From assembly GCA_903835075.1 (NCBI GenBank), contig CAILLM010000003.1:1002-65001 (forward strand): DNA of 64,000 nucleotides, written 5' to 3'. This DNA is from Candidatus Staskawiczbacteria bacterium. GTDB lineage: Bacteria > Patescibacteriota > Minisyncoccia > Minisyncoccales > Staskawiczbacteraceae. Below are positions 3,294 through 63,249 of this stretch, in pieces (the first letter of the stretch is position 1; each line of letters opens with the position of its first letter). The position numbers and the translations under genes are program-made. A model generated the notes under the pieces. The model searched no databases. It saw only the letters and a program-made list of their open reading frames with translations, and had not been told where the DNA came from.

Positions 3294-3569
3294 TTATTTT
3301 AACCTATAAACAATTCTGCCCTTTTCATTATCATAAGGACTCATTTCTAGAGAAACCTTATCGCCAGGCAAAATAGTTATTCTATTCATTCTCATTTTGC
3401 CCGATAAAAATCCCATAATCTCTCTACCGTCGCTAAGCACTACCTTGAAAAAGGCATTTGGCAAAGCTTCTATAACTCTTCCGTCTGTTTTTATTATTTG
3501 ATTACTCCGACTTTGTCGTGAGTCCTCGACAGTGGAACCGTCGGGATTTTTATCTTGATTTATAGGCAT
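3294..3569 (-). CDS. infA: Translation initiation factor IF-1
   Basis: 91 aa; S1-like core [16 protein letters not shown] ... [12 protein letters not shown]; about 20 aa N-terminal extension. Confidence 0.9.
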
Positions 3570-5031: not shown

Positions 5032-5181
5032 AAGGCGAGGTAACAAACTTATAGCGAGACAGTTAATTTTTAGCGTATTTCAGGACACGAAGTGCCTGAC
5101 GAAGCCATTTAGACGCGAAACGTATCAATGGCGGTAGCAGAAAATTAATTGCCGAGCGATAAAAACGCTTGTTGCCGAGCG
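5032..5181. repeat. Composite GC-rich palindromic element, nested copy (A-type core)
   Basis: GGCGAGG.. / AGCGAGAC left boundaries, two GCCGAGCGA right boundaries; core hairpin TCAGGACAC-GAA-GTGCCTGA. Near-identical to the copies at 12827 and 56959. Confidence 0.85.
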
Positions 5182-5187
5182 AAAAAA

Positions 5188-12826: not shown

Positions 12827-12973
12827 AGCGAGGCAATTTTTTTAGCGAGGGAGTTAATTTTCAGCGTATTTCAGGACACGAAGTGCCTGACGAAGCCATT
12901 TAGACGCGAAGCGTATCAATGGCGTTAGCAGAAAATTAATTGCCGAGCGAGAAAAAAGTTTTTTGCCAAGCGA
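12827..12973. repeat. Composite GC-rich palindromic element, nested copy (A-type core), filling the rplO-secY spacer
   Basis: AGCGA-GGCAATTTTTTT-AGCGA-GGGAGTTAATTTTC ... GAAAATTAATTGCC-GAGCGA-...TTTTTTGCC-AAGCGA; ends 2 nt from the rplO stop. Confidence 0.9.
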
Positions 12974-21977: not shown

Positions 21978-22394
21978 CTAAATTTTTATCGTAATGTCAA
22001 CACCAGATGGCAAATTTAAATCTCTTAGTGATTCTATAATTTCTGCATTTGGATTTAAAATGTCAATAATTCTTTTATGAACTCTCATTTCAAATTGCTC
22101 TCTTGCATTTTTGTGTACAAAAGAAGATCTGTTCACGGTGTATTTAAGAATTTCTGTTGGAAGTGGTACTGGCCCTGAAACTTCAGCTCCAAATCTGTTG
22201 GCAATATCAATTATCTGCTTGGCAGAATTATCAATAATTTTATGATCATAAGCTTTCAATTTTATGCGAAGCTTAAGACCTGCTATTTCAACAGCCTTAG
22301 GATTTACTTTTGCCTCGTCTTTTCTTGCTTTTCCGCCCAAGGCGGATCCGCCTAGGGCGGACTTTTTTACGATGGTTTTTTTAGTAGCTGGCAT
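21978..22394 (-). CDS. rpsJ: 30S ribosomal protein S10 with about 40 aa N-terminal extension
   Basis: 138 aa; core LRIKLKAYDHKIID; the extension contains a repeat-derived ALGGSALGG. Confidence 0.9.
   Translation of the reverse strand: MPATKKTIVKKSALGGSALGGKARKDEAKVNPKAVEIAGLKLRIKLKAYDHKIIDNSAKQIIDIANRFGAEVSGPVPLPTEILKYTVNRSSFVHKNAREQFEMRVHKRIIDILNPNAEIIESLRDLNLPSGVDITIKI
22333..22362. repeat. Two tandem GC mini-hairpins inside the rpsJ 5' region
   Basis: CCGCC-CAA-GGCGG then TCCGCC-TAG-GGCGGA; translated in-frame as SALGGSALGG. Confidence 0.8.
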
Positions 22395-27352: not shown

Positions 27353-27397
27353 ATAATACTTAATTTATAATTTTTAATTTAAAATTTCTGATTTACT

Positions 27398-27510
27398 AGC
27401 GAGGCAGTGAATTCGAAGCGTACCCTGCAGGCCCGCCCAGGGCGGGCCGAAGCCTGAGTGAGTTGCGCGCTGGCGCAACGAACGCTAGCGGAGAATTCAC
27501 TGCCGAGCGA
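27398..27510. repeat. Composite GC-rich palindromic element (B-type core) in the rpsG-fusA spacer
   Basis: AGCGA-GGCAGTGAATTC...GAATTCACTGCC-GAGCGA; internal hairpins GGCCCGCC-CAG-GGCGGGCC and TTGCGC-GCTG-GCGCAA; ends 2 nt from the rpsG stop. Confidence 0.9.
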
Positions 27511-41146: not shown

Positions 41147-44100
41147 TTAATTAATAATAAATGAAGTAGACCCTGTGCATGTCCCTTTTGTTCCAGTAGG
41201 CACCGCAACCTGCCAATAAACATTTTGAGTAACAGTTGGAGTTGATTGTGTTGGCTTGTTTAAATTTGCCCCAACATCAGTTGCTGTAACAGACAAAGCT
41301 GTTCCCGCACCATAACTAAAACTACTCAAATTATATTGCTGATTACCAACTGGTATAGAGGATCTAACCGAACACCCCAAATTGTTACCAGCAACTTTGA
41401 ATCCTGTTGCAATGTTACCGGTGTTAGTAACTGTTACTGTATGGTTTCCAGTTGTATTATGATTTGGAGTAAGTGAACCATAACTTATGGTTGCCCCAAC
41501 ATCAATAGATTTTAATGTATCCATTTCAATCCCCGAAGAAGTTGTTCCTGTACCCCCGCCAATGTGATCTGATGGCGTAATTTTGCAAAGCCAATTTTCA
41601 GAAGAATAAGTCCCCGAATCTGTTGCATCGGCGTAATAATAAACCGGGAATGTGCAAGTATAAATTTGCGTGTTACCCGACCCTCCCGAGGCAACACACT
41701 GGCTGGTGAGGGTATAATGGTTTGCCCTATCATCACTTGCGCCAACACCAATTCCGCTTCTATATAACACTGCAGTAACTCCAGTTAAGTCGGCGTACCC
41801 GTTAGCGTCGTAGGCAGTTGCCGAGCATACAACATTTTTAGTTGTCCCCTCCATTAAAGTTATGTCAGTTGAAGACAAAGTTGTGGCATCATAAGTTAAA
41901 ACACTTCCCGATATATACGGCAAAGTATTAAATTGCCAACCCAAGTTATTACCACCATCGGTGCTGTTTTGTTGTTGAATTGGCTGCGCTGCTCCGTTTG
42001 ACGCATTATTATCATAAACAGTTGCATATTGAACATAGGCATGGCCGTGGTTATCAGAAACAACAGCAATGTCTAAGCGTGCTCTACCAGCTTTAGCACC
42101 GTCGGTTCCGGCTTGATCAGATTTTAACAAAATATTGTGCCCATTTGAACCTTCCAATTGAAACGTGCCGGAAATTGTTGTGGTTGTTGCTTGCGGAAAA
42201 ATAATTATTTGGCTTGGCGTAATGGCTGTAAAATTATAAAACGTTGTTGTGCCAGAAATTGTTGTGGTTGCACCAGAAAATACAACCGCACCAAGTTGTG
42301 GCGTAAAAGTTCCTGTATTTGCCCAATTTCCTGTGTTTGTAATTCCATAATTGCTTCCACTTTTAGCATCAAGCGTACCGGCTGTAATATTTACTCCGGC
42401 CACCGTAATATTTGTTGGCAACGTAAATGTTCCGCCATTGCCGTTTATTTTTAAAATTGCATTTGTGTAAGTCCAATTTTTAATATCTCTTGTACCAGAA
42501 GTAGCAGTATATTCCACCGTTGAACCAGCGCTTAGCGTTGGCGTTGAAACAGTTTCTCCGCCTTGCAGTTGAAGCTTTGCAGTTGAAACAAAAGTTGGCG
42601 AAGTTAAATTATTCCCAGCTAAATTAAGAACCCCAGTAGAACTTAAGGTTGTGCTTACTGCCGATTGATTTCCAGCCAAGGTTACTGTGTTTGAGTCAAT
42701 TACAACCGTATCATAAGAACCAGGATAACCCACCCCCTCTACATTTCCCGCTTTTCCCCAAGTAGCACCTAAGTTCCAATTTCCGTTTACAGCATCGTTG
42801 AAAGAAATTGGCGAAGTTGAACCACCATCAGTTATTGTCCAGCCATAAGTTCCTGTTAAAACTCCGCGTGCGGTTGCCGGAGCACCTGTATAATATTTTG
42901 CACCACCTCCGCTAAAGGTTATCCCTGATTTTACGACTTGCCCAGACCAGCCTACTAATATGTTGCTATAGTTGATAGAAGATAACCCAGAGCTTGTGAA
43001 CATACTAGCCATACCTCCGGCAGCAGTAACTCCAGTCACATTCCAAGTGGCAAGATTTTGATTAAATACAGTGGCGCCATTAAACATATTACTCATTGTT
43101 GTAACACTTCCCGTGTTCCAACCACTTATGTTTTGATTAAAAGCGGTACCCGTAAACATATAACTCATATCTGTTACATTCGCAGTGCTCCAACCGCTTA
43201 TATTTTGATTAAAAGCCCCGTCGTATCCAAACGCATAACGCATGTCCGTAACACTTGACATATTCCAACTTCCAATTGGTTGGTTAAATGGTGCGTTAAA
43301 AAACATCGTATTTATAGATTTAGCACTAATCGTATTCCAGTTCCCAATTGGCTGGTTGAATCCTGACGCTCTAAATGTACCAGCAAAACTCGTAACTTTT
43401 GAAACGTCCCAATTATTTATTGTATTGCTACCACCGTTATTAAAGGCGGTGGCGGTAAAAAACATAGACCCCATATTAATAAGACTAGTTGGAGTCCAAG
43501 CTCCAATGTTTTGGTTAAAAGCAGTGTCTGAATCAAACATGGACAGCATAGTTGTAACTTTGGAAACATTCCAACCTCCAATATTTTGGTTGAACACAGC
43601 ATCCGATTGAAACATATAACTCATATCCCCCACATTCCCTGTGCTCCAACTTCCGATGGGTTGGTTAAAAACAGTCGAAGTAAACATCCATTTCATATCA
43701 GTAACTTTTGATGTATCCCAATTATTTATCGTATTACTACCACCGTTATTAAAGGCACTGGCGTTGCGGAACATGCTATTCATGGTTGTTACAGCTTCTG
43801 TACTCCAACCACCAATGTTTTGGTTAAAGGCCGTACCAAAAAACATACTAGCCATACCCGTGACCTTTGCGGTGTTCCAACTTCCAATGGACTGATTAAA
43901 ATTAGTGTCATAAGCAAACATAGCGGTCATATCTGTAGCACTTATGGTGCTCCAATTTCCAATGGGTTGATTAAATGCAGTATCCTGATAAAACATATAG
44001 CCCATTGTCCCAACCTTTGAAACATCCCAGTTATTTATTGTATTGCTACCACCGTTATTAAAGGCATTAGCACCAAAAAACATATTTGCCGTGTCTGTAA

Positions 44101-46126
44101 CACTTCCAGTATTCCAACCTCCAATGTTCTCATTAAAAGCAGCGGCACTATAAAACATGCGGTTTAAACTTGTAACGCTTGCCATATTCCAACTGCCCAT
44201 AGAAGGAGCAGTTATAATTCCGCTGGCCCTGAAAGCGCTACCCATGTTTGTTATTCCTGTCGTGTCCAAAGCGTCTACTGCGGTAATTCTTAAATTAGTG
44301 GTTCCATAAAAATAACTACCAACATTTCCCAATCTCAATATTCCCCATTGCGAAATAGTTTTTATCTTTAAAACGTCTCCAGTATTATTGAATTGCCAAC
44401 CAGTAAGCGTGCCCGTGATGCTCAGCGTATAGGTTCCCGAAGTTGCGTAAGTATGAGTGACTGCCGCCTGGTTCCATGCGGTAATTGTGCTGGTACTGGT
44501 GTCTCCCCAATCTACTACAAAATTATAAGTGCCTCCATTATACAAAGGAAGTTTAATCTGGCTTGCAGTGCTAGAACCCGTTGAAGTTAAAGTTGTATCC
44601 CATGTTGAAATAAAAGGACTTGGGTCAACAATGTAATCAAAATCCACACTTGCATTAACAACTTTTAAGTCAAAAAGGTCTGTTGGTTTTTGCAAATTTT
44701 GAAGTAAAATTCTGTATTTCTTCGCCTCGCCGAAGCCCGAAGGCGAAGGCGGGTCCGACGTAATATTACTAAAATCGGGGTTCATTCCGTCATTGACTGG
44801 CACTAATTTGTTACCCTCAGTTTGATTTCCATCGGCGTCTGTATAAACGGGGTAGACATCTATTGAACCTTCCATACCTGAATCGGTTGGTCTGGCAAAA
44901 ACAGTTATATCATTTCCAGTACTTAGAATTTGGTCAAAAGTTACCCGCACATAATTATCTTGCGGGACAGTTGCATAAACACCATCTTGCGTGGCAACAG
45001 TGTCATAAATATCAGCTGTTATGTTTTTATCAGCATCTAACTGAAAAGCCTTTGAAATAAAAATAATATCAAAAACTTGCTCAGACAAATGGGGGACAGT
45101 CCATTCCAAATAATCTATCATTCCATTACCATCTAAATCTTTGGCAGTAAATGGAACTTCTTGCCCATTACTATTTTTCCATTTAATTTTTATTTTATTT
45201 TCATCTCCAACTTTGTAGATTTCGGGGATTGTTGTAAAAGCCAAAACATCTGTTAATGGAGTTGTTTCGTCTTTAGCTGAAATAGTAACTTGTTGGCCAG
45301 TGTCTGTGTTGGTTTTCTCAATCACGGGAGCTGGGGCAACATATTCCACGGCAATACAATTATCAGTTTCATCTCCTTGGCAAGGTTGTTTGTCAATTAG
45401 GGGTTGATCTTGAACATCAGGGCTGGGGCTCGCTGGGTCAGCAGACTCAGTGTCCGGTTGAATAACAGGATCAGCAGGTTGCGCGGGCAATTCAGCTGGC
45501 GTCTCGGCGAGCGTTGCTTCCGAGCCTGACGTTGCTTCCGGAGTTGGTGTTACCTCCGGCGTGGTCAAGACTTCTGCTGTGCCAGATACATCAACAAATT
45601 GCGAACTATTATCTGGCAAAATAGCTGAGACAGCTCCTTCCACGGCCTGTTGCTCATCAGCTAAAAATAAGTTCATGCCATAAGCCAAGCTACCCAAAAA
45701 ATTTTTCGCATAATCTTTTTTAGCTACTGGCTTAACTACTTTTAATACATTTAATTTTTGGTCTATGGTAATTTCTGCACCCTTATTTTTCTCTATATTT
45801 CTTATTTCTGCAGGTGTTATTTTCTTAATTTTTATGTCTGTAGCATTCTTAGGAATTTTCACTAAGTGTTTACCATTTTTTATTTCATTAGCATCAACCA
45901 AAGTAACCATTTTTATAGGCAACCCCGCAACTACTTGTGCAACAGGTATAGTTCGTGCGTTTTTAAATGTGAATGTTTCTTCTCGCGAATGACTCAACTC
46001 AAACCAAACACCCCAAGCCACAAACAGCAGCACTAGGGCAAATAAAAATCCCAAAATTATATTTTTATTTTTGGTAAAAAAATTCACTAAAAACTTGCAA
46101 AATTGGTTTACAACTTTATTTTGCAT
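41147..46126 (-). CDS. Giant surface protein (1659 aa) built from five modules
   Basis: Continuous ORF. Modules: N-terminal TM anchor, shared stalk module, about 17 DUF285/BspA-type 26-residue repeats, beta-helix-like region, C-terminal domain shared with 40153-41097. Repeats of the form MF..a.aFNQ.IG.W.ts.Vt.M. Confidence 0.85.
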   Translation of the reverse strand: MQNKVVNQFCKFLVNFFTKNKNIILGFLFALVLLFVAWGVWFELSHSREETFTFKNARTIPVAQVVAGLPIKMVTLVDANEIKNGKHLVKIPKNATDIKIKKITPAEIRNIEKNKGAEITIDQKLNVLKVVKPVAKKDYAKNFLGSLAYGMNLFLADEQQAVEGAVSAILPDNSSQFVDVSGTAEVLTTPEVTPTPEATSGSEATLAETPAELPAQPADPVIQPDTESADPASPSPDVQDQPLIDKQPCQGDETDNCIAVEYVAPAPVIEKTNTDTGQQVTISAKDETTPLTDVLAFTTIPEIYKVGDENKIKIKWKNSNGQEVPFTAKDLDGNGMIDYLEWTVPHLSEQVFDIIFISKAFQLDADKNITADIYDTVATQDGVYATVPQDNYVRVTFDQILSTGNDITVFARPTDSGMEGSIDVYPVYTDADGNQTEGNKLVPVNDGMNPDFSNITSDPPSPSGFGEAKKYRILLQNLQKPTDLFDLKVVNASVDFDYIVDPSPFISTWDTTLTSTGSSTASQIKLPLYNGGTYNFVVDWGDTSTSTITAWNQAAVTHTYATSGTYTLSITGTLTGWQFNNTGDVLKIKTISQWGILRLGNVGSYFYGTTNLRITAVDALDTTGITNMGSAFRASGIITAPSMGSWNMASVTSLNRMFYSAAAFNENIGGWNTGSVTDTANMFFGANAFNNGGSNTINNWDVSKVGTMGYMFYQDTAFNQPIGNWSTISATDMTAMFAYDTNFNQSIGSWNTAKVTGMASMFFGTAFNQNIGGWSTEAVTTMNSMFRNASAFNNGGSNTINNWDTSKVTDMKWMFTSTVFNQPIGSWSTGNVGDMSYMFQSDAVFNQNIGGWNVSKVTTMLSMFDSDTAFNQNIGAWTPTSLINMGSMFFTATAFNNGGSNTINNWDVSKVTSFAGTFRASGFNQPIGNWNTISAKSINTMFFNAPFNQPIGSWNMSSVTDMRYAFGYDGAFNQNISGWSTANVTDMSYMFTGTAFNQNISGWNTGSVTTMSNMFNGATVFNQNLATWNVTGVTAAGGMASMFTSSGLSSINYSNILVGWSGQVVKSGITFSGGGAKYYTGAPATARGVLTGTYGWTITDGGSTSPISFNDAVNGNWNLGATWGKAGNVEGVGYPGSYDTVVIDSNTVTLAGNQSAVSTTLSSTGVLNLAGNNLTSPTFVSTAKLQLQGGETVSTPTLSAGSTVEYTATSGTRDIKNWTYTNAILKINGNGGTFTLPTNITVAGVNITAGTLDAKSGSNYGITNTGNWANTGTFTPQLGAVVFSGATTTISGTTTFYNFTAITPSQIIIFPQATTTTISGTFQLEGSNGHNILLKSDQAGTDGAKAGRARLDIAVVSDNHGHAYVQYATVYDNNASNGAAQPIQQQNSTDGGNNLGWQFNTLPYISGSVLTYDATTLSSTDITLMEGTTKNVVCSATAYDANGYADLTGVTAVLYRSGIGVGASDDRANHYTLTSQCVASGGSGNTQIYTCTFPVYYYADATDSGTYSSENWLCKITPSDHIGGGTGTTSSGIEMDTLKSIDVGATISYGSLTPNHNTTGNHTVTVTNTGNIATGFKVAGNNLGCSVRSSIPVGNQQYNLSSFSYGAGTALSVTATDVGANLNKPTQSTPTVTQNVYWQVAVPTGTKGTCTGSTSFIIN
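44720..44757. repeat. GC hairpin element (family GCCTCGCCGAAGC..GCGAAGGCGGG) in-frame in the giant gene
   Basis: CTTCGCCTCGCCGAAGCCCGAAGGCGAAGGCGGGTCC, translated as PPSPSGFGEAKK; related copies at 57390, 56711 (inverted) and 55869. Confidence 0.8.
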
Positions 46127-47450: not shown

Positions 47451-47603
47451 AGCGAGGAAAATGGGTTTTGTGGCGCGTTTCAGGACACAAAGTGCCTGAC
47501 CGAGCGAGTTAGTTTTGCGTAGGGTCGCGAGGAATTAATACGAAGTATAATTCCCCGACCTAGCAAAAATCACGAGCGTCGCAACAAAATCATTTTCCGA
47601 GCG
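47451..47603. repeat. Composite GC-rich palindromic element, divergent copy; its right arm overlaps the 3' end of the ComEC-like CDS
   Basis: AGCGA-GGAAAATGGGTTTTGT ... ACAAAATCATTTTCC-GAGCG; contains TCAGGACAC-AAA-GTGCCTGA and GGAATTA..TAATTCC hairpins. Confidence 0.8.
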
Positions 47604-48534
47604 TTATATTATTACCGTCAGAAATAAAGGTAACGTCACCATTTATGTCTGTTCTTAACACCTTTATACCAAAATTTTGCAATCTTTGCAAAGTTTCGGG
47701 CGTTGGGTGCCCATAAGAATTTTTCCCAACCTCAATAACCGCAAATTTTGGTGTTACACTTGCTAAAAATAAATCACTAGTTGAATATTTACTTCCATGA
47801 TGGGCCACTTTCAAAACATTGGCCAAAATATCTTGCCCTGAGCCGTGCCAAATGATTTCGCCAACAATCTCTTTTTCAGCTTTTGTATCTATATCTCCAG
47901 TAAATAAAAAAGAGTTTTTTCCATAAATTATTTTTGAGACCACGCATGAATCGTTAGAGCTACTTTTCATTTCTTTGCCTTCCATGCTTTGCAACGGATA
48001 AATTGTATCAATTAGAACATTGCCGGCTTTTATTTCCTGCCTGCCGGCAGGCAGGCCTGCCCCCGATTGTGCGACTATAATTTTGGCTCCCATATTTTTT
48101 TGATACGCCAAAATTTTCATCCATGCGTAATATTCTGGGGCTGATTTTTTAATGCCACTCCACAAAATATAATCTGCTTTATATCTTTGCAAAGCATATA
48201 AAATCCCTTGCATATGATCGGACTCAGGGTGAGTTAAAATTACTAAATCAATTGTTTTATCCCAAACTGGCATATTTTCAGATAATTTTCCCAAAACTGT
48301 GGCATTTGGCCCACCATCTATTAAAATTTGGTGGCCCTCTGGGGTTTCAATAAACTCTGCATCTCCTTGCCCAACACTTAAAAACACAACTTTCAAATAA
48401 TGTGAGCCATATAGAGAAAAAACTTCCTGCCATGCAACAAAATTCAAAACCAACAAAAATCCAACAATAAATAAAACCGCACTCTTTTTCATTTTAATTA
48501 AATATACCCTTTTGTAACTGTATAACCGTCTCAA
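47590..48534 (-). CDS. ComEC/Rec2-type metallo-beta-lactamase domain protein (N-terminal TM, no competence channel domain)
   Basis: 314 aa; HPESDHMQG, KVAHHGSKYS, YGHP. Alternative start ATG at 48492; contains the LPAGRQ palindrome insert. Confidence 0.75.
   Translation of the reverse strand: MRRLYSYKRVYLIKMKKSAVLFIVGFLLVLNFVAWQEVFSLYGSHYLKVVFLSVGQGDAEFIETPEGHQILIDGGPNATVLGKLSENMPVWDKTIDLVILTHPESDHMQGILYALQRYKADYILWSGIKKSAPEYYAWMKILAYQKNMGAKIIVAQSGAGLPAGRQEIKAGNVLIDTIYPLQSMEGKEMKSSSNDSCVVSKIIYGKNSFLFTGDIDTKAEKEIVGEIIWHGSGQDILANVLKVAHHGSKYSTSDLFLASVTPKFAVIEVGKNSYGHPTPETLQRLQNFGIKVLRTDINGDVTFISDGNNITLGK
48036..48055. repeat. 20-bp perfect GC palindrome in-frame in a CDS
   Basis: CCTGCCTGCCGGCAGGCAGG, translated LPAGRQ. 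Confidence 0.9.
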
Positions 48535-51599: not shown

Positions 51600-52127
51600 C
51601 TATATAACTTTATATAAAATAAAGCTTGTTACTAATAAAAATATTACTGGCACCACAACTCTTTGATATGGAAAAAATACTTTTCCATTATTTTGTTTTT
51701 TTAAATACAAATTAAACCAATGCCCCAAATATAAAACTATAAATCCCATGACAGAACCTACAATTATTTTGTCTAAGCCCCAAATTTGATTTAATGGGTG
51801 CCCCACAATTCCGGCATAGTATAGTGGAATGTATGTTAGCAAAACATAAGCTAAGGTGATTACAATTCCATCATCAGTAAAGCTCCATTTTTTCTTTTTC
51901 ATGTAGTCTAAGGTCCAAGAAATAATGGCAATCATAAATGCTCCAATCCAAACTGAGGATACCACGTCGTCAATTCCAAACCAGCGTGAAAATCCAAGTC
52001 CAGCTCCAATTGCCACAACACAAACAGGGCAAACTTGCGCGCTTACAAAAGTTGCCCTGCCTACCGGCAGGCAGGCGAAAATAATTCCTAAAAATAATAA
52101 TCCTAAAAATAAATATTTATATTTCAT
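51600..52127 (-). CDS. Integral membrane protein with CPVC motif
   Basis: 175 aa, about 5 TM segments; QVCPVCVVAIGAG. Contains a palindrome insert; last gene of the copper/redox run. Confidence 0.55.
   Translation of the reverse strand: MKYKYLFLGLLFLGIIFACLPVGRATFVSAQVCPVCVVAIGAGLGFSRWFGIDDVVSSVWIGAFMIAIISWTLDYMKKKKWSFTDDGIVITLAYVLLTYIPLYYAGIVGHPLNQIWGLDKIIVGSVMGFIVLYLGHWFNLYLKKQNNGKVFFPYQRVVVPVIFLLVTSFILYKVI
52056..52075. repeat. 20-bp GC palindrome (1 mismatch) in-frame in a CDS
   Basis: CCTGCCTACCGGCAGGCAGG, translated CLPVGRA (read in a different frame from the other copies). Confidence 0.85.
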
Positions 52128-52138
52128 AAATTAAATGT

Positions 52139-52250
52139 AGCGAGGCAGTGAATTCAAAGCGTACCCTGCAGGCCCGCCCTGGGCGGGCCGAAGCCTGAGT
52201 GAGTTGCGCGCTGGCGCAACGAACGCTAGCGGAGAATTTACTGCCGAGCG
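52139..52250. repeat. Composite GC-rich palindromic element (B-type core)
   Basis: Near-identical to 27398-27510 (AGCGA-GGCAGTGAATTC ... GAATTTACTGCC-GAGCG); ends 6 nt from the upstream stop. Confidence 0.9.
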
Positions 52251-52709: not shown

Positions 52710-54992
52710 CTATAATTTCATACCTTTAATTCTCAAGCTATTCCCTACTACGCTTACGCTTGAAAATGCCATAGCCAGACCTGCAAAAATTGGGTTTAAC
52801 AACACTCCAAAAAATGGATACAGTAATCCCGCTGCAATGGGAATTCCTACAATATTATAAATAAACGCCCAGAATAAGTTTTGCTTAATGCCACGCATAG
52901 TAATTTTTGAAAGCTTAATGGCTTTTACCATTTTTGAGATGTCTCCTCCCAACAAAGTAATACCAGCAGTTTCTATGGCAACATCTGTGCCAGTGCCCAT
53001 GGCAATCCCAACATCAGCCTGAGCCAATGCTGGCGCATCGTTTACCCCATCACCTGCCATTGCAACAACTTTTCCTTCTGCCTGTAATGTTTTTATAGTA
53101 ACTAATTTATCTTCTGGAAGAGCTTCTGCTACTACTCTATCAATGCCCACTTGTTTGGCAATTGCTTCTGCGGTGTTTTTATCATCGCCAGTTAACATTA
53201 CCAAACTAATTCCAAGTTTATGCAAATTATTAATTGCTTCAATTGCTTCGGGCTTTATTGCGTCAGCAATCATAAACACAGCAATAATTTCACTTTTAGT
53301 TGCTAAAATTACGGGCGTTTTGCCTTGCAAAGTTTCAGCCTCAATTGTTTTCAAATCAAAGGAAATTTTCAAATCAGAAATAAGTTTTGCATTCCCAGCA
53401 AAATATTCTTTTTTATTTATGGTCCCCCTTAATCCTTTTCCTTTAATAATTTCAAATTTTTGGGCTTCAGCTATTTCAATGGAGTTATTTTTTGCGTATT
53501 CCATTACCGCATAAGCAATGGGATGCTCTGAATTTTTTTCTAAACCCGCCAAAATGGCAACAACTTCTTCTTCATTTAAATTGGACTGCCCCGAGGCGTC
53601 TCGAGGGGAATAATTTTTAATACTTACTAATTCTGGTTTACCTTTGGTAATAGTTCCGGTTTTATCAACTACTACAGTATTTACTTTATACAGTTTTTCT
53701 AAAGTTGCGGCATCTTTAATTAAAATCCCTTCTTTAGCTCCTTTACCAACCCCTACAATAATGGCTGTTGGGGTGGCTAATCCTAATGCGCACGGGCAAG
53801 CAATAACTAAAATTCCCACAAAAGACATTAACCCAAATGAAAGAGCTTTTAAAAATCCCAAATAATAAGTTCCCAAACCTAACCATGTTAAAAGCGTTAA
53901 AAACGCAACTACCAATACTATTGGCACAAAAACGCCAGAAATTTTATCGGCTAATGCCTGAATTGGCGCCTTGCTTCCCTGAGCATCTTGCACCATTTTT
54001 ACAATATGAGCTAACAAAGTTTCAGAACCAATTTTTGTAGCCTTAAAAGTAAAAGCGCTATTAGTATTAATTGTGCCCGCCACAACCGTGTCTCCAACTT
54101 TCTTTTCTTTTGGCATTGGCTCACCTGTTACCATGGCCTCATCAATAAATGAAGTACCAGCGGCAACCACACCATCTACTGGAATTTTTTGCCCCGGTTT
54201 TACAACAATTAAATCTCCATGGACAACTTCATTTACAGAAATTTCTTTTTCTGAGCCACTGCGAATTACTAATGCAGTTTTTGCTTGCAAATTTAGTAAT
54301 TTTTCTATTGCGTCGCCGGTTTTTAATTTAGACCGCGCCTCAAGAAATTTTCCTAATGCAATAAATGTAATAACCACAATAGTTACATCAAAATAAGTTT
54401 GTTCAACATTAATAAACTTTCCTAGGGGACCTTCAAAAGCTGTCACAATAAAACTATAAAAAAATGCTGTAATTGTTCCAATACCAATTAAACTGTCCAT
54501 ATTGGCTTTTCCATATCTAAAAAACCTGTAAGCGCCCAACAAATAAGGTTTCCCCACCACAAATAACATATAACTGGCCATTATTGGCAATAAATGATGA
54601 AAAAATTCGCTGGTATCATAATTCATTGGCGAAACAATTTTTAACTGCGACAAAATATCCCATGCCATAATAAAAATGCTGATTACGGCTAGCGGAATTG
54701 CGGAAATTACTTTATTTTTTTGATCTTTAATTTCATCTAATTTTTCTTTTTTAGATTGGTTAATTTCTGGTTCATTTTCGCTTGGCATAACAATAGAATA
54801 ACCAAAAGGCTCAATCTTTTTTGATAAAGCTTCAAGATTAGTTTTTTTGTCATCAAAAGCAATTTTTACAGCTTCTGTTCCATAATTTACTTCAACCGAA
54901 GTCACTCCGTCAGTTTTTTTGAAAGTTCCTTCTATAATGTTTGCACAAGAAGCACAGTGCATTCCCTTAATTTTATAAGATTTTTTCTCCAT
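52710..54992 (-). CDS. copA: Copper-translocating P-type ATPase
   Basis: 760 aa; HMA domain [28 protein letters not shown]. Confidence 0.92.
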
Positions 54993-55238: not shown

Positions 55239-55425
55239 TAAGTTCTTTTAAAATTTTATCTAAATCCAACCCATAGGCCTTACAAATTTCTCCAACTTGC
55301 AAGTCATCCATTTCAAACTCGGCCATTGGGCAAGACAAGCACGGCACCCCATTTTTTGCTAAAATTTTATCGGCACCTTTTTGTTTAATTATTTTTGCTA
55401 AAGTAGTAGTTTTTGTTATTTTCAT
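55225..55425 (-). CDS. DUF1858-type redox-disulfide small protein
   Basis: 66 aa; GVPCLSCPMA...TLGEICKAYGLD-like pattern. Confidence 0.6.
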   Translation of the reverse strand: MKITKTTTLAKIIKQKGADKILAKNGVPCLSCPMAEFEMDDLQVGEICKAYGLDLDKILKELNVPK

Positions 55426-55431
55426 AAAATT

Positions 55432-55561
55432 AGCGAGGCAGTGAATTCGTAGCGTGCCCTGCAGGCAATTTTGCTTGGTCCGCCGATAGGCGGAAAATTG
55501 CCGAAGCCTGAGTGAGCCCGCGCTGGCGGGCGAACGCTAGCGAAGAATTCTCTGCCAAGCG
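55432..55561. repeat. Composite GC-rich palindromic element (B-type scaffold with substituted hairpins)
   Basis: AGCGA-GGCAGTGAATTC ... GAATTCTCTGCC-AAGCG; hairpins GGCAATTTT..TCCGCC-GATA-GGCGGA..AAAATTGCC and CCCGC-GCTG-GCGGG. Confidence 0.9.
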
Positions 55562-56958: not shown

Positions 56959-57100
56959 AGCAAGGCAATTTTTTTTAGCGAGGGAGTTAATTTTCAGCGT
57001 ATTTCAGTACACGAAGTGACTGACGAAGCCATTTAGACGCGAAGCGTATCAATGGCGTTAGCAGAAAATTAATTGCCGAACGAAAAAATTTTATTACCGA
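56959..57100. repeat. Composite GC-rich palindromic element, nested copy (A-type core)
   Basis: AGCAA-GGCAATTTTTTTT-AGCGA-GGGAGTTAATTTTC ... GAAAATTAATTGCC-GAACGA...; near-identical to 12827-12973. Confidence 0.9.
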
Positions 57101-57106
57101 TTATTA

Positions 57107-57517: not shown

Positions 57518-58726
57518 CTATTTTATAATTCCGCCACCCAACACCTGGTTGCCTTTATAGAAAACTGCTGACTGGCCTGAAGTAATTGCGCGGTCTGATT
57601 TTTTAAAAACTAACTTACCGTCTTTATATAAAGTTGCTTTTTGCAAAGGTGCCCTATAACGCGTGCGAGCATCTACCAGCACTGGAAAAGCTTCTGGTTT
57701 ATTTATCCAATTTATGTTTACAATTTTTGCTTCTTTCACTGCCAAATCTTTTTCTGTACCAACATAAATAATATTTTTCTTTATGTCTTTTTTAACTACA
57801 AAATAAGGTCCGTGCCCATCTTTAATGTCTAAACCATGCCTTTGGCCAATTGTGTAGTAATAAACGCCATCGTGCTTACCTATTTTTCTGCCGTCTAAAG
57901 AAATTATTTCTCCTATTTTTGGCTTTATATACATTTTTAGGAAAGCCTTCATATCAAACTGCCCAATAAAGCAAACCCCTTGGCTGTCTTTTTTCTCAGC
58001 ATTTTCTAATTTAAATTTTTTAGCTAATTTTCTAACTTCCGGCTTTGTAAGCCCACCAATTGGAAATAAGATTTTGTTTAACTGATTTTTCTTAATTGCA
58101 TACAAAAAATATGTTTGATCTTTATTTTGGTCAACAGCCTTTAGCAAGCGAGGCAAAGCAATGGAGCGAGGCAATGAACTTTTTCGAGAAGAAGGTGCCC
58201 CGTAGAGAGGCTCTCCTCGCAGAAAAAGTTTATTGCCGAGCGAAGTTTGCTGGCGGGCGAACGCTAGCGAAGAACTCAGCGCCGAGCGATTTTTGTCGAG
58301 CGTAGTCTGCGCATAGTGGCCAGTTGCCACAAAATCAAAACCTTCTTTCATGGCCCTATCAAAAAAATAACCAAATTTTATAATTTTATTGCACATTACG
58401 TCGGGGTTTGGCGTAATTCCCTTTTTATATGAATCGATCATATATTTGCCCACTTCTGCCTCATATTCTTTAGAATAATCCCAAGTTAAAAAAGGGATTT
58501 GCAATCTAGCACAAGCTCGCATAGCATCCTGCCTGTCTGTTTTCCAAATGCACTCTTTACCTAAAATTTCTGGAGCCCATTGCTTCATATAAATTCCAAC
58601 AACATCAACCTGCCTGCCGGCAGGCAGGGACCAGCCCTTTTTTAGTAGTGCAGCCGAAACTGAGCTGTCTACACCACCAGACATCGCCACGGCAATTCTT
58701 ATTTTTTGTTTACTGCTCTTATGCAT
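57518..58726 (-). CDS. mnmA: tRNA 2-thiouridine(34) synthase MnmA carrying two repeat-derived inserts
   Basis: 402 aa; PP-loop AMSGGVDSS, ATGHYA, KDQTYFLY. Extra ~45 aa lie between the last two motifs. Confidence 0.9.
   Translation of the reverse strand: MHKSSKQKIRIAVAMSGGVDSSVSAALLKKGWSLPAGRQVDVVGIYMKQWAPEILGKECIWKTDRQDAMRACARLQIPFLTWDYSKEYEAEVGKYMIDSYKKGITPNPDVMCNKIIKFGYFFDRAMKEGFDFVATGHYAQTTLDKNRSALSSSLAFARQQTSLGNKLFLRGEPLYGAPSSRKSSLPRSIALPRLLKAVDQNKDQTYFLYAIKKNQLNKILFPIGGLTKPEVRKLAKKFKLENAEKKDSQGVCFIGQFDMKAFLKMYIKPKIGEIISLDGRKIGKHDGVYYYTIGQRHGLDIKDGHGPYFVVKKDIKKNIIYVGTEKDLAVKEAKIVNINWINKPEAFPVLVDARTRYRAPLQKATLYKDGKLVFKKSDRAITSGQSAVFYKGNQVLGGGIIK
58144..58302. repeat. Composite GC-rich palindromic element inserted in-frame in mnmA
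   Basis: AGCAAGCGA-GGCAAAGC..-AGCGA-GGCAATGAACTTTTTC ... GAAAAAGTTTATTGCC-GAGCGA-..GCTGGCGGGCGAACGCTAGCGAAGAACTCAGCGCC-GAGCGA. Confidence 0.85.
58609..58628. repeat. 20-bp perfect GC palindrome in-frame in mnmA
   Basis: CCTGCCTGCCGGCAGGCAGG, translated LPAGRQ. Confidence 0.9.
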
Positions 58727-58728
58727 AT

Positions 58729-59409
58729 TTATCCGTAATATTTTTCTAAATAAAATTTAATAAGTTGTTCAATTTCTGGAATTGCCTCGGGGTCACCAAC
58801 GCCAACTTTTAATTTCTTTTGAACGTCTAATAAAGTTCGTGCTCCTTCTAAAACTGCATCTTCAATGTCATGATCTGTAATGTTTAATCTTTTATCTATA
58901 ACTTTATGCCCCAAAACAATAATTTTTTCGTGTTGCCCCTTGCTTCTAAAATAATTATTAGCAGCTTGCATAAATGCTTTGTCGCACAATACAGAACAAT
59001 GCACTTTTCTAACAGGCAAACCGCCAAGTCGGCTCATTATGTCTTGCGGTTTAATTTTTAGAGCTTGGTCAACTGTCATTCCCCCTTTTTCTGTTACCAT
59101 AACTGAAAACATAGAAGTTGCCGCAATTGCAGAAGCACAACCAAAAGTTCTCCATTTTAGTTTTTTAATTTTGGGGTACCCTTTGGGTCCTTTGGGGTCA
59201 ACTTTGAACCAAATCTTCATTACGTCCCCACATTGAGGCGAGCCAACTTGTCCCTCTGCATCAAACTCACCCTTTTTAGGTAATTTTGCCAAAAAATTAT
59301 GCGGTTTAAAAAAATGGCTTTTAACTATATCCGAATAAATCCACCCCTCACCTGAGTGGGAGCTGGCAACATCTAATTTTTTAATTTTCTTTGTATTTTT
59401 TGTTTTCAT
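58729..59409 (-). CDS. iscU: Fe-S cluster scaffold protein (IscU/NifU N-terminal type with C-terminal extension)
   Basis: Start at ATG 59409; the track ORF starts at a TTG inside the repeat. Cys ligands in QCGDVMK, GCASAIA and HCSVL. Confidence 0.8.
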   Translation of the reverse strand: MKTKNTKKIKKLDVASSHSGEGWIYSDIVKSHFFKPHNFLAKLPKKGEFDAEGQVGSPQCGDVMKIWFKVDPKGPKGYPKIKKLKWRTFGCASAIAATSMFSVMVTEKGGMTVDQALKIKPQDIMSRLGGLPVRKVHCSVLCDKAFMQAANNYFRSKGQHEKIIVLGHKVIDKRLNITDHDIEDAVLEGARTLLDVQKKLKVGVGDPEAIPEIEQLIKFYLEKYYG

Positions 59410-59428: not shown

Positions 59429-59523
59429 TGAGGCAATAAATTTTTTGAAGCGAGGCAGTGAATTCGAAGCGTACCCTGCAGGCCCGCCCTGGGCGGGCCG
59501 AAGCCTGAGTGAGCCCGCGCTGG
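59429..59523. repeat. Composite GC-rich palindromic element, right half missing
   Basis: ..GAGGCAATAAATTTTTTGA-AGCGA-GGCAGTGAATTCGAAGCG...GAGTGAGCCCGCGCTGGA, ending 2 nt from the iscS stop codon. Confidence 0.85.
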
Positions 59524-59524
59524 A

Positions 59525-60808
59525 TTAAACCCTTACATTTACTGGCGAAATTCTTCTTAAATCTGCTACAATTTTTGGTAAAACTTTCAAAACATAATCT
59601 AAATCTTTTTTTGTAGTACTTCTGCCCAAAGTGAAACGCAAATTACCGTTGGCATATTCATATGGCCTTGAAAGGGCTAAAATGACGTGTGAGGGCTCTA
59701 AACTTTGCGAGTCACATGCAGAGCCAGTTGAACAATAAATTCCATATTTATCAAGCCACAAAAGCATTGCCTCTCCTTCAATATCTAAAATAGAAATATT
59801 TATATTATTTGGTAATCGTTTTTGTGCGTGTCCGTTTAGAACAACCTTAGAAACTTTTTTGGAAACTTCTTTTATAAAATAATCTCGCAACTTGGCTTCT
59901 TTTGCAGATTCTTTTCCCGTTGCCTGAGAAATTTCTAAAGCCTTGGCCAAACCAATAATTCCCGAAATATTTTCTGTGCCACTGCGCTTGCCATTTTCTT
60001 GACCGCCCCCAAAAACTATTGGGTCAATTTTGGTACCAGCTTTAACATATAAGACTCCTGTGCCCTTAGGCCCATAAATTTTACTCCCATTTAAAGTTAA
60101 TAGGTCAACTCCTAATTTTTGAACATCTAAATCTAAATAGCCAGCTGCCTGGCAAGCGTCTGTATGAAAATAAATTGGGGTGCTTATATTTCTTTTGAAT
60201 CTATTTGCTCTTATTTCTTTAATAATTTTTCCTATTTCTTCTATTGGCTGAATGGTTCCAATTTCATTATTTGCATACATAATTGAAATCAAAACTGTTT
60301 CATCTGTTATTACTTTTTTAAAGTCTTCTAAAAGTAAAATTCCATCTTTATCAACTTTTGAAGAAGTCACCTTAAAACCCTCTTTTTCTAATTGCTCACA
60401 TGGGTACAAAACCGCATGATGTTCTATATTAGAAGTAATTATATGAGCCGATAAGGCCGAGCTAAATAAATTTTTGGAGGAGGGGTAATCGCCTTGAGGA
60501 CATTCCCCCGACGAGCAAAAATTTGATTTGGCGAGGCCGAGCGAACGCGCGCAGGCTCTCGCCACGCCTAAAATAGCTAAATTATCACTTTCTGTCCCAG
60601 AACCTGTAAAAATTATTTCTTCTGGTTTACAATTTAAAATTTGAGCTATTGATTTTCTAGCTTTTAAAATTGCTGTTTTTGATTCACGGCCTGCTGTGTG
60701 CAAAGATCCTGCATTACCATAAATTTTATTATAATAAGGCTCCATTGCTTTTAACACACGAGAATCTGTTGGAGTTGTAGATGCATTATCTAGGTAAATT
60801 TTATTCAT
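59525..60808 (-). CDS. iscS: Cysteine desulfurase carrying a repeat-derived insert
   Basis: 427 aa; YLDNASTTP, SKIYGPKGTG, STGSACDS. Extra segment RACARSLGLAKSNFCSSGECPQGDYPSSKNLFSSALS precedes HIITSNIEHHAV. Confidence 0.9.
   Translation of the reverse strand: MNKIYLDNASTTPTDSRVLKAMEPYYNKIYGNAGSLHTAGRESKTAILKARKSIAQILNCKPEEIIFTGSGTESDNLAILGVARACARSLGLAKSNFCSSGECPQGDYPSSKNLFSSALSAHIITSNIEHHAVLYPCEQLEKEGFKVTSSKVDKDGILLLEDFKKVITDETVLISIMYANNEIGTIQPIEEIGKIIKEIRANRFKRNISTPIYFHTDACQAAGYLDLDVQKLGVDLLTLNGSKIYGPKGTGVLYVKAGTKIDPIVFGGGQENGKRSGTENISGIIGLAKALEISQATGKESAKEAKLRDYFIKEVSKKVSKVVLNGHAQKRLPNNINISILDIEGEAMLLWLDKYGIYCSTGSACDSQSLEPSHVILALSRPYEYANGNLRFTLGRSTTKKDLDYVLKVLPKIVADLRRISPVNVRV
60445..60566. 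repeat. C-type palindromic element derivative inserted in-frame in iscS
   Basis: Arms AAATAAATTTTTGGAGG / GCAAAAATTTGATTT match the arms of 49431-49549; flanked by GCCGAGC and GGCGAGGCCGAGCGA. Confidence 0.75.
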
Positions 60809-61212
60809 TTTGTTAAACTTGCCAAAGTTATTGAATATAAAGTTTTTGATAAAGATTGCCCTACCTTATCCCAAACATTTTTTGACACACATTTTTTAGC
60901 CTTACTACATAGCACACAATTAACAGGATTTATCTTTCCGTCTATGGTTTCCACTATAATTCCTGCGGTAATTAGTTTCGATGATTTTGCCAAATAATAA
61001 CCACCATTAGCGCCGTGTATGGATGAAACTAACCCTGCTTTCTCTAAACAGCTAAAAATTTTACTTAAAAATTCAAAAGGCACTTCTTCAATATTCGAAA
61101 TTTGTCTTATAGAAACAGCCTTTTTACCGTGCCTACCGGCAGGCAGTCTTTTATTACGGGCGAGATGCACCATTGCAGTAAGTCCATATTCGGCTTTTTT
61201 TGATATTTTCAT
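60805..61212 (-). CDS. Rrf2-family (IscR-like) transcriptional regulator
   Basis: 135 aa; wHTH N-terminus, C-x2-C-x5-C cluster-ligand-like motif, 4-nt overlap with iscS; contains an LPAGRH insert. Confidence 0.8.
   Translation of the reverse strand: MKISKKAEYGLTAMVHLARNKRLPAGRHGKKAVSIRQISNIEEVPFEFLSKIFSCLEKAGLVSSIHGANGGYYLAKSSKLITAGIIVETIDGKINPVNCVLCSKAKKCVSKNVWDKVGQSLSKTLYSITLASLTK
61130..61145. repeat. GC palindrome (short variant) in-frame in the Rrf2 gene
   Basis: TGCCTACCGGCAGGCA, translated LPAGRH. Confidence 0.8.
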
Positions 61213-62062: not shown

Positions 62063-62560
62063 TTACCGATATTTATTTATTTCATATCCTGCAATCCCAA
62101 AGGATACCGAAACGTTTAACGACTCTTTTTGCCCCGACATTGGCAAAAATATTATTTTATCTGATTTTTTTAATATTGCTCTAGAAACGCCCTTAACTTC
62201 ATTTCCTAAAATTAATGCCAAGGGAAATTTAGGCTTTAACTTTAAATAATTTATAGCTTTCTTACCCGCCTGCCGAGCTGGCAGATCTTGCTCCAATGCT
62301 ACTATATTTATTTTACTCCTTTTTAATTTGTCTATCAACTTGTTGATGTTTTTACAATGCTCAAAAGAAACTGTTTTTTCAGCACCTAAAGCTGTTTTAG
62401 CTATTTTTTTGTGAAGCCCTTCTTCCCAAGTTGGCACCTGCCCAGTTATTCCACACAAAAAAATTTTAGTTACACCAAGAGCATCGGAAGTTCTAAAAAT
62501 AGAACCCACATTTTCTAAACTTCTAATATTGTCACAAATCACATAAAATTCCTTTTCCAT
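62063..62560 (-). CDS. SpoU/TrmH-family RNA 2'-O-methyltransferase
   Basis: 165 aa; ENVGSIFRTSDALG, LGNEVKGVS, SLNVSVSFGI; contains an LPARQAG insert. Confidence 0.8.
   Translation of the reverse strand: MEKEFYVICDNIRSLENVGSIFRTSDALGVTKIFLCGITGQVPTWEEGLHKKIAKTALGAEKTVSFEHCKNINKLIDKLKRSKINIVALEQDLPARQAGKKAINYLKLKPKFPLALILGNEVKGVSRAILKKSDKIIFLPMSGQKESLNVSVSFGIAGYEINKYR
62268..62284. repeat. GC hairpin variant in-frame in the SpoU gene
   Basis: CTGCC-GAGCT-GGCAG context, translated LPARQAG. Confidence 0.7.
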
Positions 62561-62619: not shown

Positions 62620-63249
62620 CTATTTTTCAGAGAAGCGTTTTTCTACTTCTGGCCAATTTACAACATTCCACCAAGCTTTTAAGTAATCTGCTCGGACATT
62701 TTTGTATTGCAAGTAATAGGCGTGTTCCCAAACATCGTTAGCTAAAATTGGAGTTTTTCCATTACTAATTGGATTTTCTTGGTTGGCTGTTGAAATAATT
62801 TCTAATTTACCTGAAGCATCTTTAACTAGCCACACCCAACCCGAACCAAACCTTTTCAACCCTTCGTCATTAAACTTTTGCTGAAATTCTGCAAAGCTTC
62901 CAAATTGATTTTTTATTTCTTCTGCTAATTTACCAGATGGCTCTCCTGCCTGCGCAGGCAGGCCTCCGGCGCTTGGTGACATTATTTCCCAAAACATTGA
63001 ATGGTTAACGTGCCCACCAGCATTATTTATAACTGCTGTACGAATATCTTCTGGGATGCTTTCTAAATTAATCAATAATTCTTCTGCGGTTCTTTCAAAT
63101 AATTCTGGATTTTTTTCAATAACTGCATTTAAGTTATTAACATATGTTGCATGATGCTTATCATGATGCAGCTTCATTATTTCTTCTGAAATATAAGGTT
63201 CTAAAGCATCATATGCATATGGCAATGCTGGTAATATATATTTTTCCAT
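62620..63249 (-). CDS. Fe/Mn superoxide dismutase with a 6-aa palindrome-encoded insert
   Basis: 209 aa; [14 protein letters not shown]; loop [18 protein letters not shown]. Confidence 0.92.
62945..62962. repeat. 18-bp perfect GC palindrome in-frame in the sod gene
   Basis: CCTGCCTGCGCAGGCAGG, six codons LPAQAG. Confidence 0.9.

Follow-up and report, generated by a model that had tools for sequence, protein, structure and literature searches.

A short GC-rich palindrome, apparently inserted in frame in genes of a Candidatus Staskawiczbacteria contig, recurs across bacterial phyla and phages

The window analysed here, a 64-kb stretch of contig CAILLM010000003.1 from a Candidatus Staskawiczbacteria bacterium, contains six copies of a short GC-rich palindrome, CCTGCCTGC(CG)GCAGGCAGG, between 48 and 63 kb, and every one of them lies within a minus-strand open reading frame (ORF). 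Our data indicate that these copies are additions to genes whose close orthologs lack them, and that the identical palindrome occurs in many phyla and in phages much more often than chance would give. We interpret the six sequences as copies of a 'mini-hairpin', a palindromic insertion element that is very small and non-autonomous, and put the probability of this reading at roughly 0.57. We favour a mobile element, one that proteins would tolerate in surface loops, because the palindrome is dispersed in more than a hundred unrelated bacterial species and in phage contigs.

The G+C content of the window is approximately 35%, its minus strand carries nearly all genes, and the named homologs of its superoxide dismutase (SOD) and MnmA proteins belong to Candidatus Staskawiczbacteria or Parcubacteria within the candidate phyla radiation (CPR, Patescibacteria). 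We scanned the window for the pattern CCTGCCTGC-N0-4-GCAGGCAGG, with 100 dinucleotide-preserving shuffles as background, and found three perfect matches in the window and none in the shuffles (n=100). When up to three mismatches were allowed, further copies were found at 52056-52075 (one mismatch) and 61128-61147 (three mismatches), where none was expected. Overall, three of the six copies are perfect, one has a single mismatch and two are decayed. An initial annotation of this DNA had described six in-frame copies in six genes; all are present and non-random (0 in the shuffles), with the translations that it gave.

The perfect 20-mer CCTGCCTGCCGGCAGGCAGG at 48036-48055 lies in a gene for a metallo-beta-lactamase (MBL)-fold protein resembling the C-terminal part of ComEC (47590-48534, minus strand) and is read G-LPAGRQ-E. 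A second perfect 20-mer, at 58609-58628, follows the first nucleotide of a conserved Phe/Leu codon in mnmA (57518-58726, minus strand) and is read S-LPAGRQ-V. The third perfect copy is the 18-mer CCTGCCTGCGCAGGCAGG at 62945-62962, which has no central CG and is read G-LPAQA-G in the interdomain loop of an Fe/Mn SOD (62620-63249, minus strand). The 20-nt copy with one mismatch (52056-52075; mRNA strand CCTGCCTGCCGGTAGGCAGG) lies in the gene of a conserved membrane protein (51600-52127, minus strand), where it falls in the signal-peptide region and is read in another frame, A-CLPVGR-A. The two decayed copies are found in a gene for an Rrf2-family regulator (60805-61212, minus strand; copy at 61126-61147, mRNA strand ACTGCCTGCCGGTAGGCACG, three mismatches, net +18 nt, read LPAGRH) and in a gene for a SpoU-family methyltransferase (62063-62560, minus strand; 21-nt copy CTGCCAGCTCGGCAGGCGGGT at 62264-62284, read LPARQAG). 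Pfam assigned Sod_Fe_N/C, tRNA_Me_trans (MnmA), Rrf2, SpoU_methylase and, for the 'ComEC-like' protein, Lactamase_B to the host genes, and a Pfam scan of the membrane protein gave no match.

We compared these genes with locus L121, a syntenic contig whose gene order matches the window from SOD to a P-type ATPase and whose proteins are 83-90% identical to those of the window, with the exception of Rrf2 (50%). L121 does not contain the inserts. Codon alignment with L121 gives a net difference of +18 nt in SOD, with CCTGCCTGCGCAGGCAGG standing between GG and A, and of +21 nt in mnmA, which equals the perfect 20-mer plus one base. The SOD insert adds six amino acids relative to the SODs of the Protein Data Bank (PDB), the 203-aa nearest homologs and L121, and the MnmA insert adds seven relative to PDB MnmA, L121 and approximately 115 homologs. 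SpoU shows an exact seven-codon gap (+21 nt, +7 aa) against its 87%-identical L121 ortholog at the decayed copy, and Rrf2 a difference of +18 nt (+6 aa) at its decayed copy, the exact boundaries of which are less certain given the 50% identity. The MBL-fold protein has a homolog in L167 with a 7-aa gap exactly at the palindrome, and the membrane protein is seven residues longer than all 44 of its nearest homologs, the closest of which is 81% identical and 168 aa long. These alignments indicate that each of the six copies is a true insertion, with gaps of exactly 18 nt (SOD and Rrf2) or 21 nt (the others), in line with the exact insertions of 18-21 nt that the initial annotation had anticipated. 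The opposite possibility, that LPAGRQ-type residues are ancestral in these protein families, came out negative, since close orthologs are without them.

In contigs of the same species from several samples (96-100% identity), the copies are identical, decayed ones included. Insert-free alleles had been suggested as something to look for in population data, and no near-identical allele of this kind was present in protein databases or in the sampled conspecific contigs of this species. Since the conspecific contigs are identical and insert-free near-identical alleles were absent from both sources, the insertions are old and fixed in this species.

The palindrome can be read in three distinct frames only, PACRQAG, LPAGRQ and CLPAGR, all of which are stop-free, and LPAGRQ is the one frame without cysteine. 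Among genes verified by Pfam or homology, the LPAGRQ reading is used in mnmA and the MBL-fold gene of the window and in the MnmA proteins of L168, L169 and L196, and it recurs in FtsK (L013), GatB (L104), a sugar dehydratase (L021) and a PMT_2 glycosyltransferase (L071); the sole exception is the membrane protein of the window. One of three frames is used at 9 of 10 independent sites (binomial P approximately 4e-4, by hand arithmetic). Within the window, the reported reading of five copies as CTG-CCT-GCx and of one copy in another frame was borne out. The net length of coding copies is always a multiple of three, as an 18-mer or as a 20-mer plus one base, and the non-coding unit is 20 (or 18) nt. 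The earlier description of an in-frame insert of 18-20 bp holds for the 18-mer and not for the 20-mer alone, which cannot keep the frame and is found in coding copies as 20+1 nt. Judging from these alignments, the palindrome survives in genes only in frame-preserving form, and nearly always in the Cys-free frame.

The extra base of MnmA is a separate G nine bases upstream of the 20-mer. It lies in a GGG run (58635-58637, minus strand) that, by alignment, appears to hold one G more than orthologs, which would restore the frame after a 20-nt insertion. The MnmA family consensus at this site is K-A-G-F-D-V-V. The protein of the window reads K-G-W-S-LPAGRQ-V-D-V-V, that of L168 (54% identical) N-G-W-F-LPAGRQ-V-D-V-V and that of L196 (44% identical) E-G-W-F-LPAGRQ-V-D-V-T, and a metagenome scan with the mnmA junction gave one further lineage. 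When the 20-mer and one G of the upstream G-run are taken out of the window, L168 and L196 genes, all three read K/N/E-A/G-G-L/F-D-V. The window gene then becomes AAG GCT GGT CTT GAT GTT (K A G L D V), to be compared with the consensus K-A-G-F-D-V; owing to the extra G, the conserved 'AG' is now decoded as 'GW'. Since removal of both restores the consensus in three MnmA genes, we infer that the 20-mer split the Phe/Leu codon and that a +1 change in the nearest G-run restored the mnmA frame. The compensating G would also have locked the insert in, since precise loss of the palindrome alone would now cause a frameshift, and this '20 + 1' pattern would be a clean natural example of an insertion locked by a compensating frameshift. 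Across MnmA homologs the palindrome occupies at least four different positions (P0179, P0208/L169, P0237 and the 'GW' site). Separately, a Daviesbacteria metagenome-assembled genome (MAG; L047, 3199-3579) contains a 127-aa ORF, which by eye we take to be ribosomal protein bS6, with an in-frame 20-mer (…SDG-LPAGRQ-GEIF…), next to which the G-run is again longer by one G.

An AlphaFold model of the window SOD has a mean predicted local distance difference test (pLDDT) score of 88, and the only segment below 50 is the insert, residues 95-100, which is part of the coil that links the N-terminal helical hairpin to the C-terminal domain. This agrees with the initial placement of the insert in the interdomain loop, with the palindrome making up the six extra codons, and the SOD insert, the one modelled case, is predicted to be a disordered surface loop. 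The same 18-mer, which requires no frame compensation, is present at the same SOD codon in four lineages that are 69-77% identical, in two of them perfect and in two with one or two substitutions, and it is missing from the 84%-identical SOD of L121 and from roughly a hundred other homologs. Other CPR lineages (among homologs P0003-P0115) carry other short inserts in this loop, equivalent to window positions 62930-62980, including PASAEASAGK, AETGRSLVPGG and FGTAQSKSKVG/FGAAQGKPNG; further inserts in CPR lineages are GPEPRSAGWLPE, GQDAREADFAGSPVSE and PTSQQGGPKG, and homolog P0055 has a 24-aa insert adjoining the 18-mer. The variety of these unrelated SOD-loop inserts suggests that CPR loops may generally be colonised by short GC-rich sequences of many insert families.

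We scanned one genome per GTDB species for the exact 20-mer, taking matches as 8-kb stretches, and found it in at least 120 stretches from 120 different species-representative assemblies. Among the 120 matches listed, record titles place approximately 36 in CPR, 39 in Bacteroidota, 10 in Omnitrophota and 8 in Planctomycetota or the Planctomycetes-Verrucomicrobia-Chlamydiae (PVC) group, and the others include Proteobacteria-labelled MAGs, Nitrospirota, Chloroflexi and Elusimicrobia. In the same set of matches, most carrier stretches hold one 20-mer per 8 kb or less, copies in Bacteroidota and others are mostly intergenic, and the flanks of the copies are unrelated between loci. Carriers include cultured Bacteroidota isolates (Winogradskyella echinorum KCTC 22026, Flagellimonas yonaguniensis 334s03, Longitalea luteola SYSU D00799, Flavivirga sp., Aquiflexum lacus, Aestuariivivens sediminis and Agriterribacter humi YJ03), and the palindrome is also found in one single-cell genome and in one complete genome that has been curated.

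The 20-mer is present in 35 viral stretches of IMG/VR, where three control palindromes matched to it in composition and architecture had no match each, and the 18-mer variant is present in 25 viral stretches versus one for a control 18-mer. The reversed junction GGCAGGCAGGCCTGCCTGCC had no match in IMG/VR. BLAST searches of cultured phages (2.3 Gb) and plasmids (7.3 Gb), 9.6 Gb together, returned no perfect copy and only partial matches of 17 nt or 19/20 in GC-rich replicons; high G+C alone therefore does not generate the palindrome. With 0 matches in shuffles and controls near zero in IMG/VR, the proposal that the palindrome is no commoner than composition predicts failed, and what had been presented as a feature of this genome proved to be a family common to many phyla and phages.

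The unit has two basic forms, one of 20 nt, (CCTG)2-CCGG-(CAGG)2, and one of 18 nt with CG at the centre, and its 16-, 18- and 20-mer variants consist of the same CCTG repeat arms joined in different phases. The 20-mer forms a hairpin of 8 bp with a 4-nt loop (-13.9 kcal/mol as RNA), and two decayed window copies keep their pairing through G.U on the mRNA strand. Two non-coding cases allow filled and empty sites to be compared. The curated WWE3 genome (L037) has an intact tRNA-Lys gene and, 260 nt upstream of it, a duplicated 5' fragment of the gene. The only difference between the two is the 20-mer, which in the fragment separates the D-loop from the 3' strand of the D-stem; nothing is duplicated or deleted. 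Viral contig L150 contains a family of hairpin repeats with plain loops (…CGGTTTTTG|CAAGGGTGGG), one member of which has the 20-mer at the loop/stem junction. Since the filled and empty sites in both differ by exactly 20 nt, the unit is added as discrete DNA without target-site duplication. Direct repeats of at least 3 nt flank the unit at 6 of 123 sites, the preceding base is A in 41% and T in 9% of cases, and A|T flanks, which extend the unit to a 22-nt palindrome, are found at 33 of 123 sites.

Insertion sites of the element include other copies of it, hairpin loops, complete or partial tRNA genes, and protein-coding genes. Nested copies in L018, L042 and L021 lie 1 nt off the centre of another copy, the tRNA-Met of L154 is intact once the palindrome is deleted, and 13 of 170 sites are in, or within 150 nt of, a tRNA gene. 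A flanking stem of at least 6 bp is present at 8.5% of sites and at 1.7% of control positions. Despite this five-fold enrichment, hairpin loops were rejected as the general target, given that they account for 8.5% of sites, and were retained as a partial tendency. A tRNA intron was likewise rejected, there being one intact interrupted tRNA only and the others being 5' fragments beside intact genes. Growth from the centre of the P-nucleotide type explains the step from 16 to 18 nt and fails for that from 18 to 20 nt (worked out by hand). A remnant of an insertion sequence, or a derivative consisting of its terminal inverted repeats (TIRs) only, found no support in 1.3 Mb of fetched loci, where half-sites pair only as the palindrome, as its 16/18-nt variants or as a few small bounded elements in viral contigs.

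Several observations concern the surroundings of non-coding copies. Partial 5' tRNA copies (Lys, Val and one other) with the 20-mer in the D-arm are present in L037 (2090-2490), L030 (3620-3790) and L015 (4020-4225), 30-260 nt upstream of intact tRNA genes, and L015 seemingly has the matching 3' half of the interrupted tRNA as well, downstream of a tRNA-Met that intervenes. Tandem repeats of 6-14 nt (e.g., AATTACG, GGTGAGA, TCTAAAA and TCTCGTCTCTCGCT) flank the 20-mer in L002, L005, L050, L058, L082, L101, L130, L132, L138, L151, L153 and L155, which are Bacteroidota, Planctomycetes-like and viral contigs; the same tandem unit is often found on both sides, as if the 20-mer had landed within a microsatellite-like array. 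Viral contig L163 (IMGVR_UViG_3300025106_000007) ends in eleven perfect tandem copies (3911-4142) of the 21-nt palindrome-like unit CCATGCCTACCGGCAGGCAGG. An inverted copy (3501-3521) lies 390 nt upstream of this array, the pair brackets a small ORF, and the CCTACCGG variant of the unit is that of the membrane-protein and Rrf2 copies of the window.

We hypothesized that the palindrome inserts into transiently single-stranded DNA, as suggested by the absence of target duplication together with the preference for loops, tRNA genes and other copies. The inserts would be translated, nearly neutral passengers and not functional motifs, and a 20-nt insertion could be rescued by a +1 slip in a nearby G-run that then locks the insert. 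Movement may proceed via single-stranded hairpin DNA, carried out by a hairpin-specific enzyme (HUH/Y1-type or similar) that acts in trans from a gene elsewhere, or by templated copying of existing copies at stalled forks. A bolder version, which we hold only tentatively and consider doubtful as a whole, is that this is the smallest known mobile element, a hairpin pasted into single-stranded DNA at hairpin loops, tRNA genes and transcribed genes by a widespread sequence-recognising host or phage enzyme, moving between phyla and repeatedly re-targeting one and the same codon in conserved genes such as mnmA and sodA.

Several results weigh against a mobile element. No transposase or other enzyme was found near the copies; in an all-against-all BLASTP comparison of 1808 ORFs from 120 loci, made in search of a linked enzyme gene, no family occurred in more than six loci. 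Neither gains nor losses were caught within a population, every copy being fixed, and hairpin targeting is at most a partial rule. Furthermore, perfect 20-mers occupy the same codon in MnmA genes that are only 44-54% identical, and the four SOD lineages keep the 18-mer at one codon, where a neutral passenger should have decayed. Such same-codon copies point to conservation, gene conversion, site preference or short-patch transfer, which a plain selfish element would not lead one to expect. Those of MnmA require that the hairpin is conserved, that short patches were transferred between orthologs, or that re-insertion favoured this site and was compensated in parallel. As to a related autonomous insertion sequence with the same termini, bounded elements in the 1.3 Mb were seen in viral contigs only, in L152 (73 nt and longer) and L163 (approximately 400 nt plus the tandem array), and inverted copies lie 650-1400 nt apart in viral contigs L180/L181 and L150. 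No identifiable transposase was found in these elements, the ORFs between the ends in L150 and L180 having been listed and not scanned against a protein-family library.

Existing copies, from the same genome or from environmental DNA taken up, might instead be copied without a dedicated transposase, through template switches or illegitimate recombination of short patches at sites of microhomology while DNA is replicated or repaired, with the GC-rich hairpin acting as an unusually efficient donor in AT-rich genomes. We regard this as the strongest competitor and still as rather unlikely. It would account for the lack of a gene recurring beside the copies (120 loci), for the missing target duplication in L037 and L150, and for the assembly of 16-, 18- and 20-mers from CCTG arms in different phases; G/C microhomology is present at several junctions (GG..GG around the SOD insert, with G|G and C|C flanks at approximately twice the expected frequency), and the orthologous-position inserts in divergent genes could be short-patch transfer. 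CPR bacteria carry DNA-uptake genes, which also counts in its favour, and the window holds an MBL-fold ComEC-like fragment only. Yet most junctions lack usable microhomology, and neither the sharing of one sequence among phyla nor its absence from the 9.6 Gb of cultured phages and plasmids is explained. An ordinary repetitive extragenic palindromic (REP) sequence, mobilised by a REP-associated tyrosine transposase (RAYT) and falling in genes of a compact genome, would match the size and GC-rich hairpin of the unit, which are within the REP range as outlined in PMC3733652 (20-40 bp). The lack of target duplication and the mostly intergenic position of copies in Bacteroidota and others would fit as well. 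We nevertheless find a REP origin distinctly improbable, since a GTAG/CGTC tag within 6 nt occurs about as often as by chance (12 of 334 20-mer flanks and 4 of 58 18-mer flanks), all six window copies are intragenic, and no Y1-transposase-like gene recurs near copies in the 8-kb stretches (top family, 6 of 120 loci). REPs are species-specific, whereas this palindrome is perfect and identical across phyla.

Conservation at one codon, in MnmA as in SOD, and a stable RNA hairpin whose pairing persists through G.U in two decayed copies are what one would see if the palindrome were a selected signal, for instance for DNA uptake, protein binding or recombination or as a hairpin in the mRNA, with the peptide as a by-product. 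This has little probability in our view, given that positions are scattered over unrelated protein loops, a signal peptide, tRNA fragments, intergenic repeats and phages, that the closest relative (L121) manages without all six copies, and that several window copies are decaying. Known uptake sequences (DNA uptake sequences, DUS; uptake signal sequences, USS) are far denser than this palindrome, which is present at approximately one per 8-kb stretch or less in most carriers. The strong hairpin, and the copies inside tRNA genes, one of them an otherwise intact tRNA-Met, would also be compatible with inserts that are lost from the transcript or passed over by the ribosome, like a mini-intron or a mitochondrial byps element, and leave the protein unchanged. 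Length and frame would then not matter, yet coding copies are 3n and nearly all in one frame, the 20-mer of three MnmA genes comes with a compensating +1, and most tRNA cases are dead 5' fragments adjoining an intact gene; we consider removal or bypass very improbable. Chance, ancestral residues or a sequencing or assembly artefact can hardly be credited at all, considering the empty shuffles, the control palindromes missing from the viral collection and the orthologs without the residues. Moreover, the copies differ from one another by point mutations, independent assemblies of several samples agree on them, and the palindrome occurs in cultured-isolate, single-cell and curated complete genomes.

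The window contains other repeats and inserts. A GC-rich repeat of approximately 113-140 nt that resembles miniature transposable elements with inverted repeats (MITEs), with TIRs AGCGAGGCAGTGAATTC / GAATTCACTGCCGAGCG, is intergenic at 27397-27509, 52138-52250, 55425-55561 and 59448-59560, and a fifth copy (58163-58306; 144 nt, diverged and full-length) lies in frame in mnmA, where it adds 48 residues. A second mini-hairpin family, TCCGCC-N3-4-GGCGGA, is found at 22332-22361 and 55479-55494 in the window, with no match in window shuffles, and in 22 of 195 fetched loci; its arms recur in loci from a number of phyla and, in viral contig L150, at the tips of hairpins. At 22332-22361, two tandem 15-nt copies encode SALGGSALGG within the N-terminal extension of ORF 21978-22394, which by eye we presume to be ribosomal protein S10, and the copy at 55479-55494 forms the tip of an intergenic repeat. 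Relative to L121, further in-frame GC-rich inserts are present in IscS (+30 aa, 60464-60553), NifU (+4 aa, approximately 59170-59190) and a copper P-type ATPase (53586-53609; +8 aa, PRDASGQS, containing the palindrome CGAGACGCCTCG), and the sequences of all three differ from the 20-mer. An intergenic family of approximately 134 nt with the core TTTCAGGACACGAAGTGCCTGACGAAGCC has copies at 5049-5182, 12840-12973 and 56973-57106 and a partial one at 47467-47512, which are 81-92% identical. Two very large minus-strand ORFs, 30906-37697 (2263 aa) and 41147-46126 (1659 aa), contain internal degenerate 72-84-nt repeats and shared 230-nt segments and probably encode repeat-rich surface proteins.

If the mobile-element reading is true, DNA that moves or spreads selfishly can be as short as approximately 20 bp, which lowers its size limit, and a unit of this size colonises conserved enzymes (SOD, MnmA, GatB and FtsK) across CPR by way of stop-free frames and surface loops. 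One exact word shared by CPR, cultured Bacteroidota, the PVC group and phages is a handle for profiling against gene content, which could reveal a DNA-joining activity that is new and specific to hairpins, or a route by which phyla exchange DNA. The inserts create lineage-specific indels in marker proteins, shift CPR gene-length statistics and can mislead alignments and phylogenies.

Full-text searches of the literature matched neither the palindrome, whole or in sub-strings, nor the peptide LPAGRQ, topical searches returned only papers on Rickettsia palindromic elements (RPEs), REPs, MITEs and mitochondrial or organellar hairpins, and RepRanger (PMC12306157) does not contain the motif. RPEs are described as hairpin repeats in frame in unrelated Rickettsia housekeeping genes, tolerated and translated (Ogata et al. 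2000, as summarised in PMC10969869); that summary gives them as imperfect, approximately 100-150 bp long, in ten families and restricted to Rickettsia. Like RPEs, the palindrome lies in frame in unrelated genes of a small AT-rich genome and is missing from orthologs; unlike them, it is 18-21 nt long, perfect and identical across many phyla (CPR, Bacteroidota and other hosts) and phages. The 144-nt MITE-like insert of mnmA, missing from L121 and PDB MnmA, is a true RPE-like case. With REPs, in which a GTAG or CGTC tetranucleotide defines two superfamilies of GC-rich hairpins according to PMC3733652, and with REPINs, the palindrome has in common a short GC-rich stem-loop, a non-autonomous nature, the absence of target duplication and, presumably, handling as a single-stranded hairpin. 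It differs from them in having no GTAG/CGTC tag, in not being species-specific, in being intragenic here and in that no linked or recurrent Y1 transposase was seen.

GC-rich mini-elements are also found in mitochondria, namely yeast GC clusters, double-hairpin elements, the repetitive hairpin elements (RHEs) of sponges (PMC2800124) and byps. These are likewise palindromic and spread in very AT-rich compact genomes, sometimes within coding regions, but they are organellar, approximately 30-60 nt or more, lineage-specific and in some cases bypassed in translation; unlike byps, the palindrome has its frame and length under selection. It resembles the cyanobacterial highly iterated palindrome HIP1 and DUS/USS as a short, over-represented and often palindromic word found in genes in preferred frames. 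HIP1 and DUS/USS arise by substitution and reach thousands of copies per genome, DUS/USS being family-specific with hundreds to thousands, whereas the palindrome is extra DNA, sparse in most carriers and the same word across phyla. It is non-autonomous and has inverted repeats like a MITE, and the 20-mer could formally be two abutted 10-nt terminal repeats, but it makes no target-site duplication, its reversed junction is absent from IMG/VR and it is ten-fold smaller than typical MITEs. In-frame selfish palindromic inserts are thus a known kind of sequence, and an identical 20-mer across phyla and phages is the unexpected property. By analogy, the most economical reading is an element that works like RPEs or mitochondrial GC clusters, an order of magnitude smaller and not lineage-specific.

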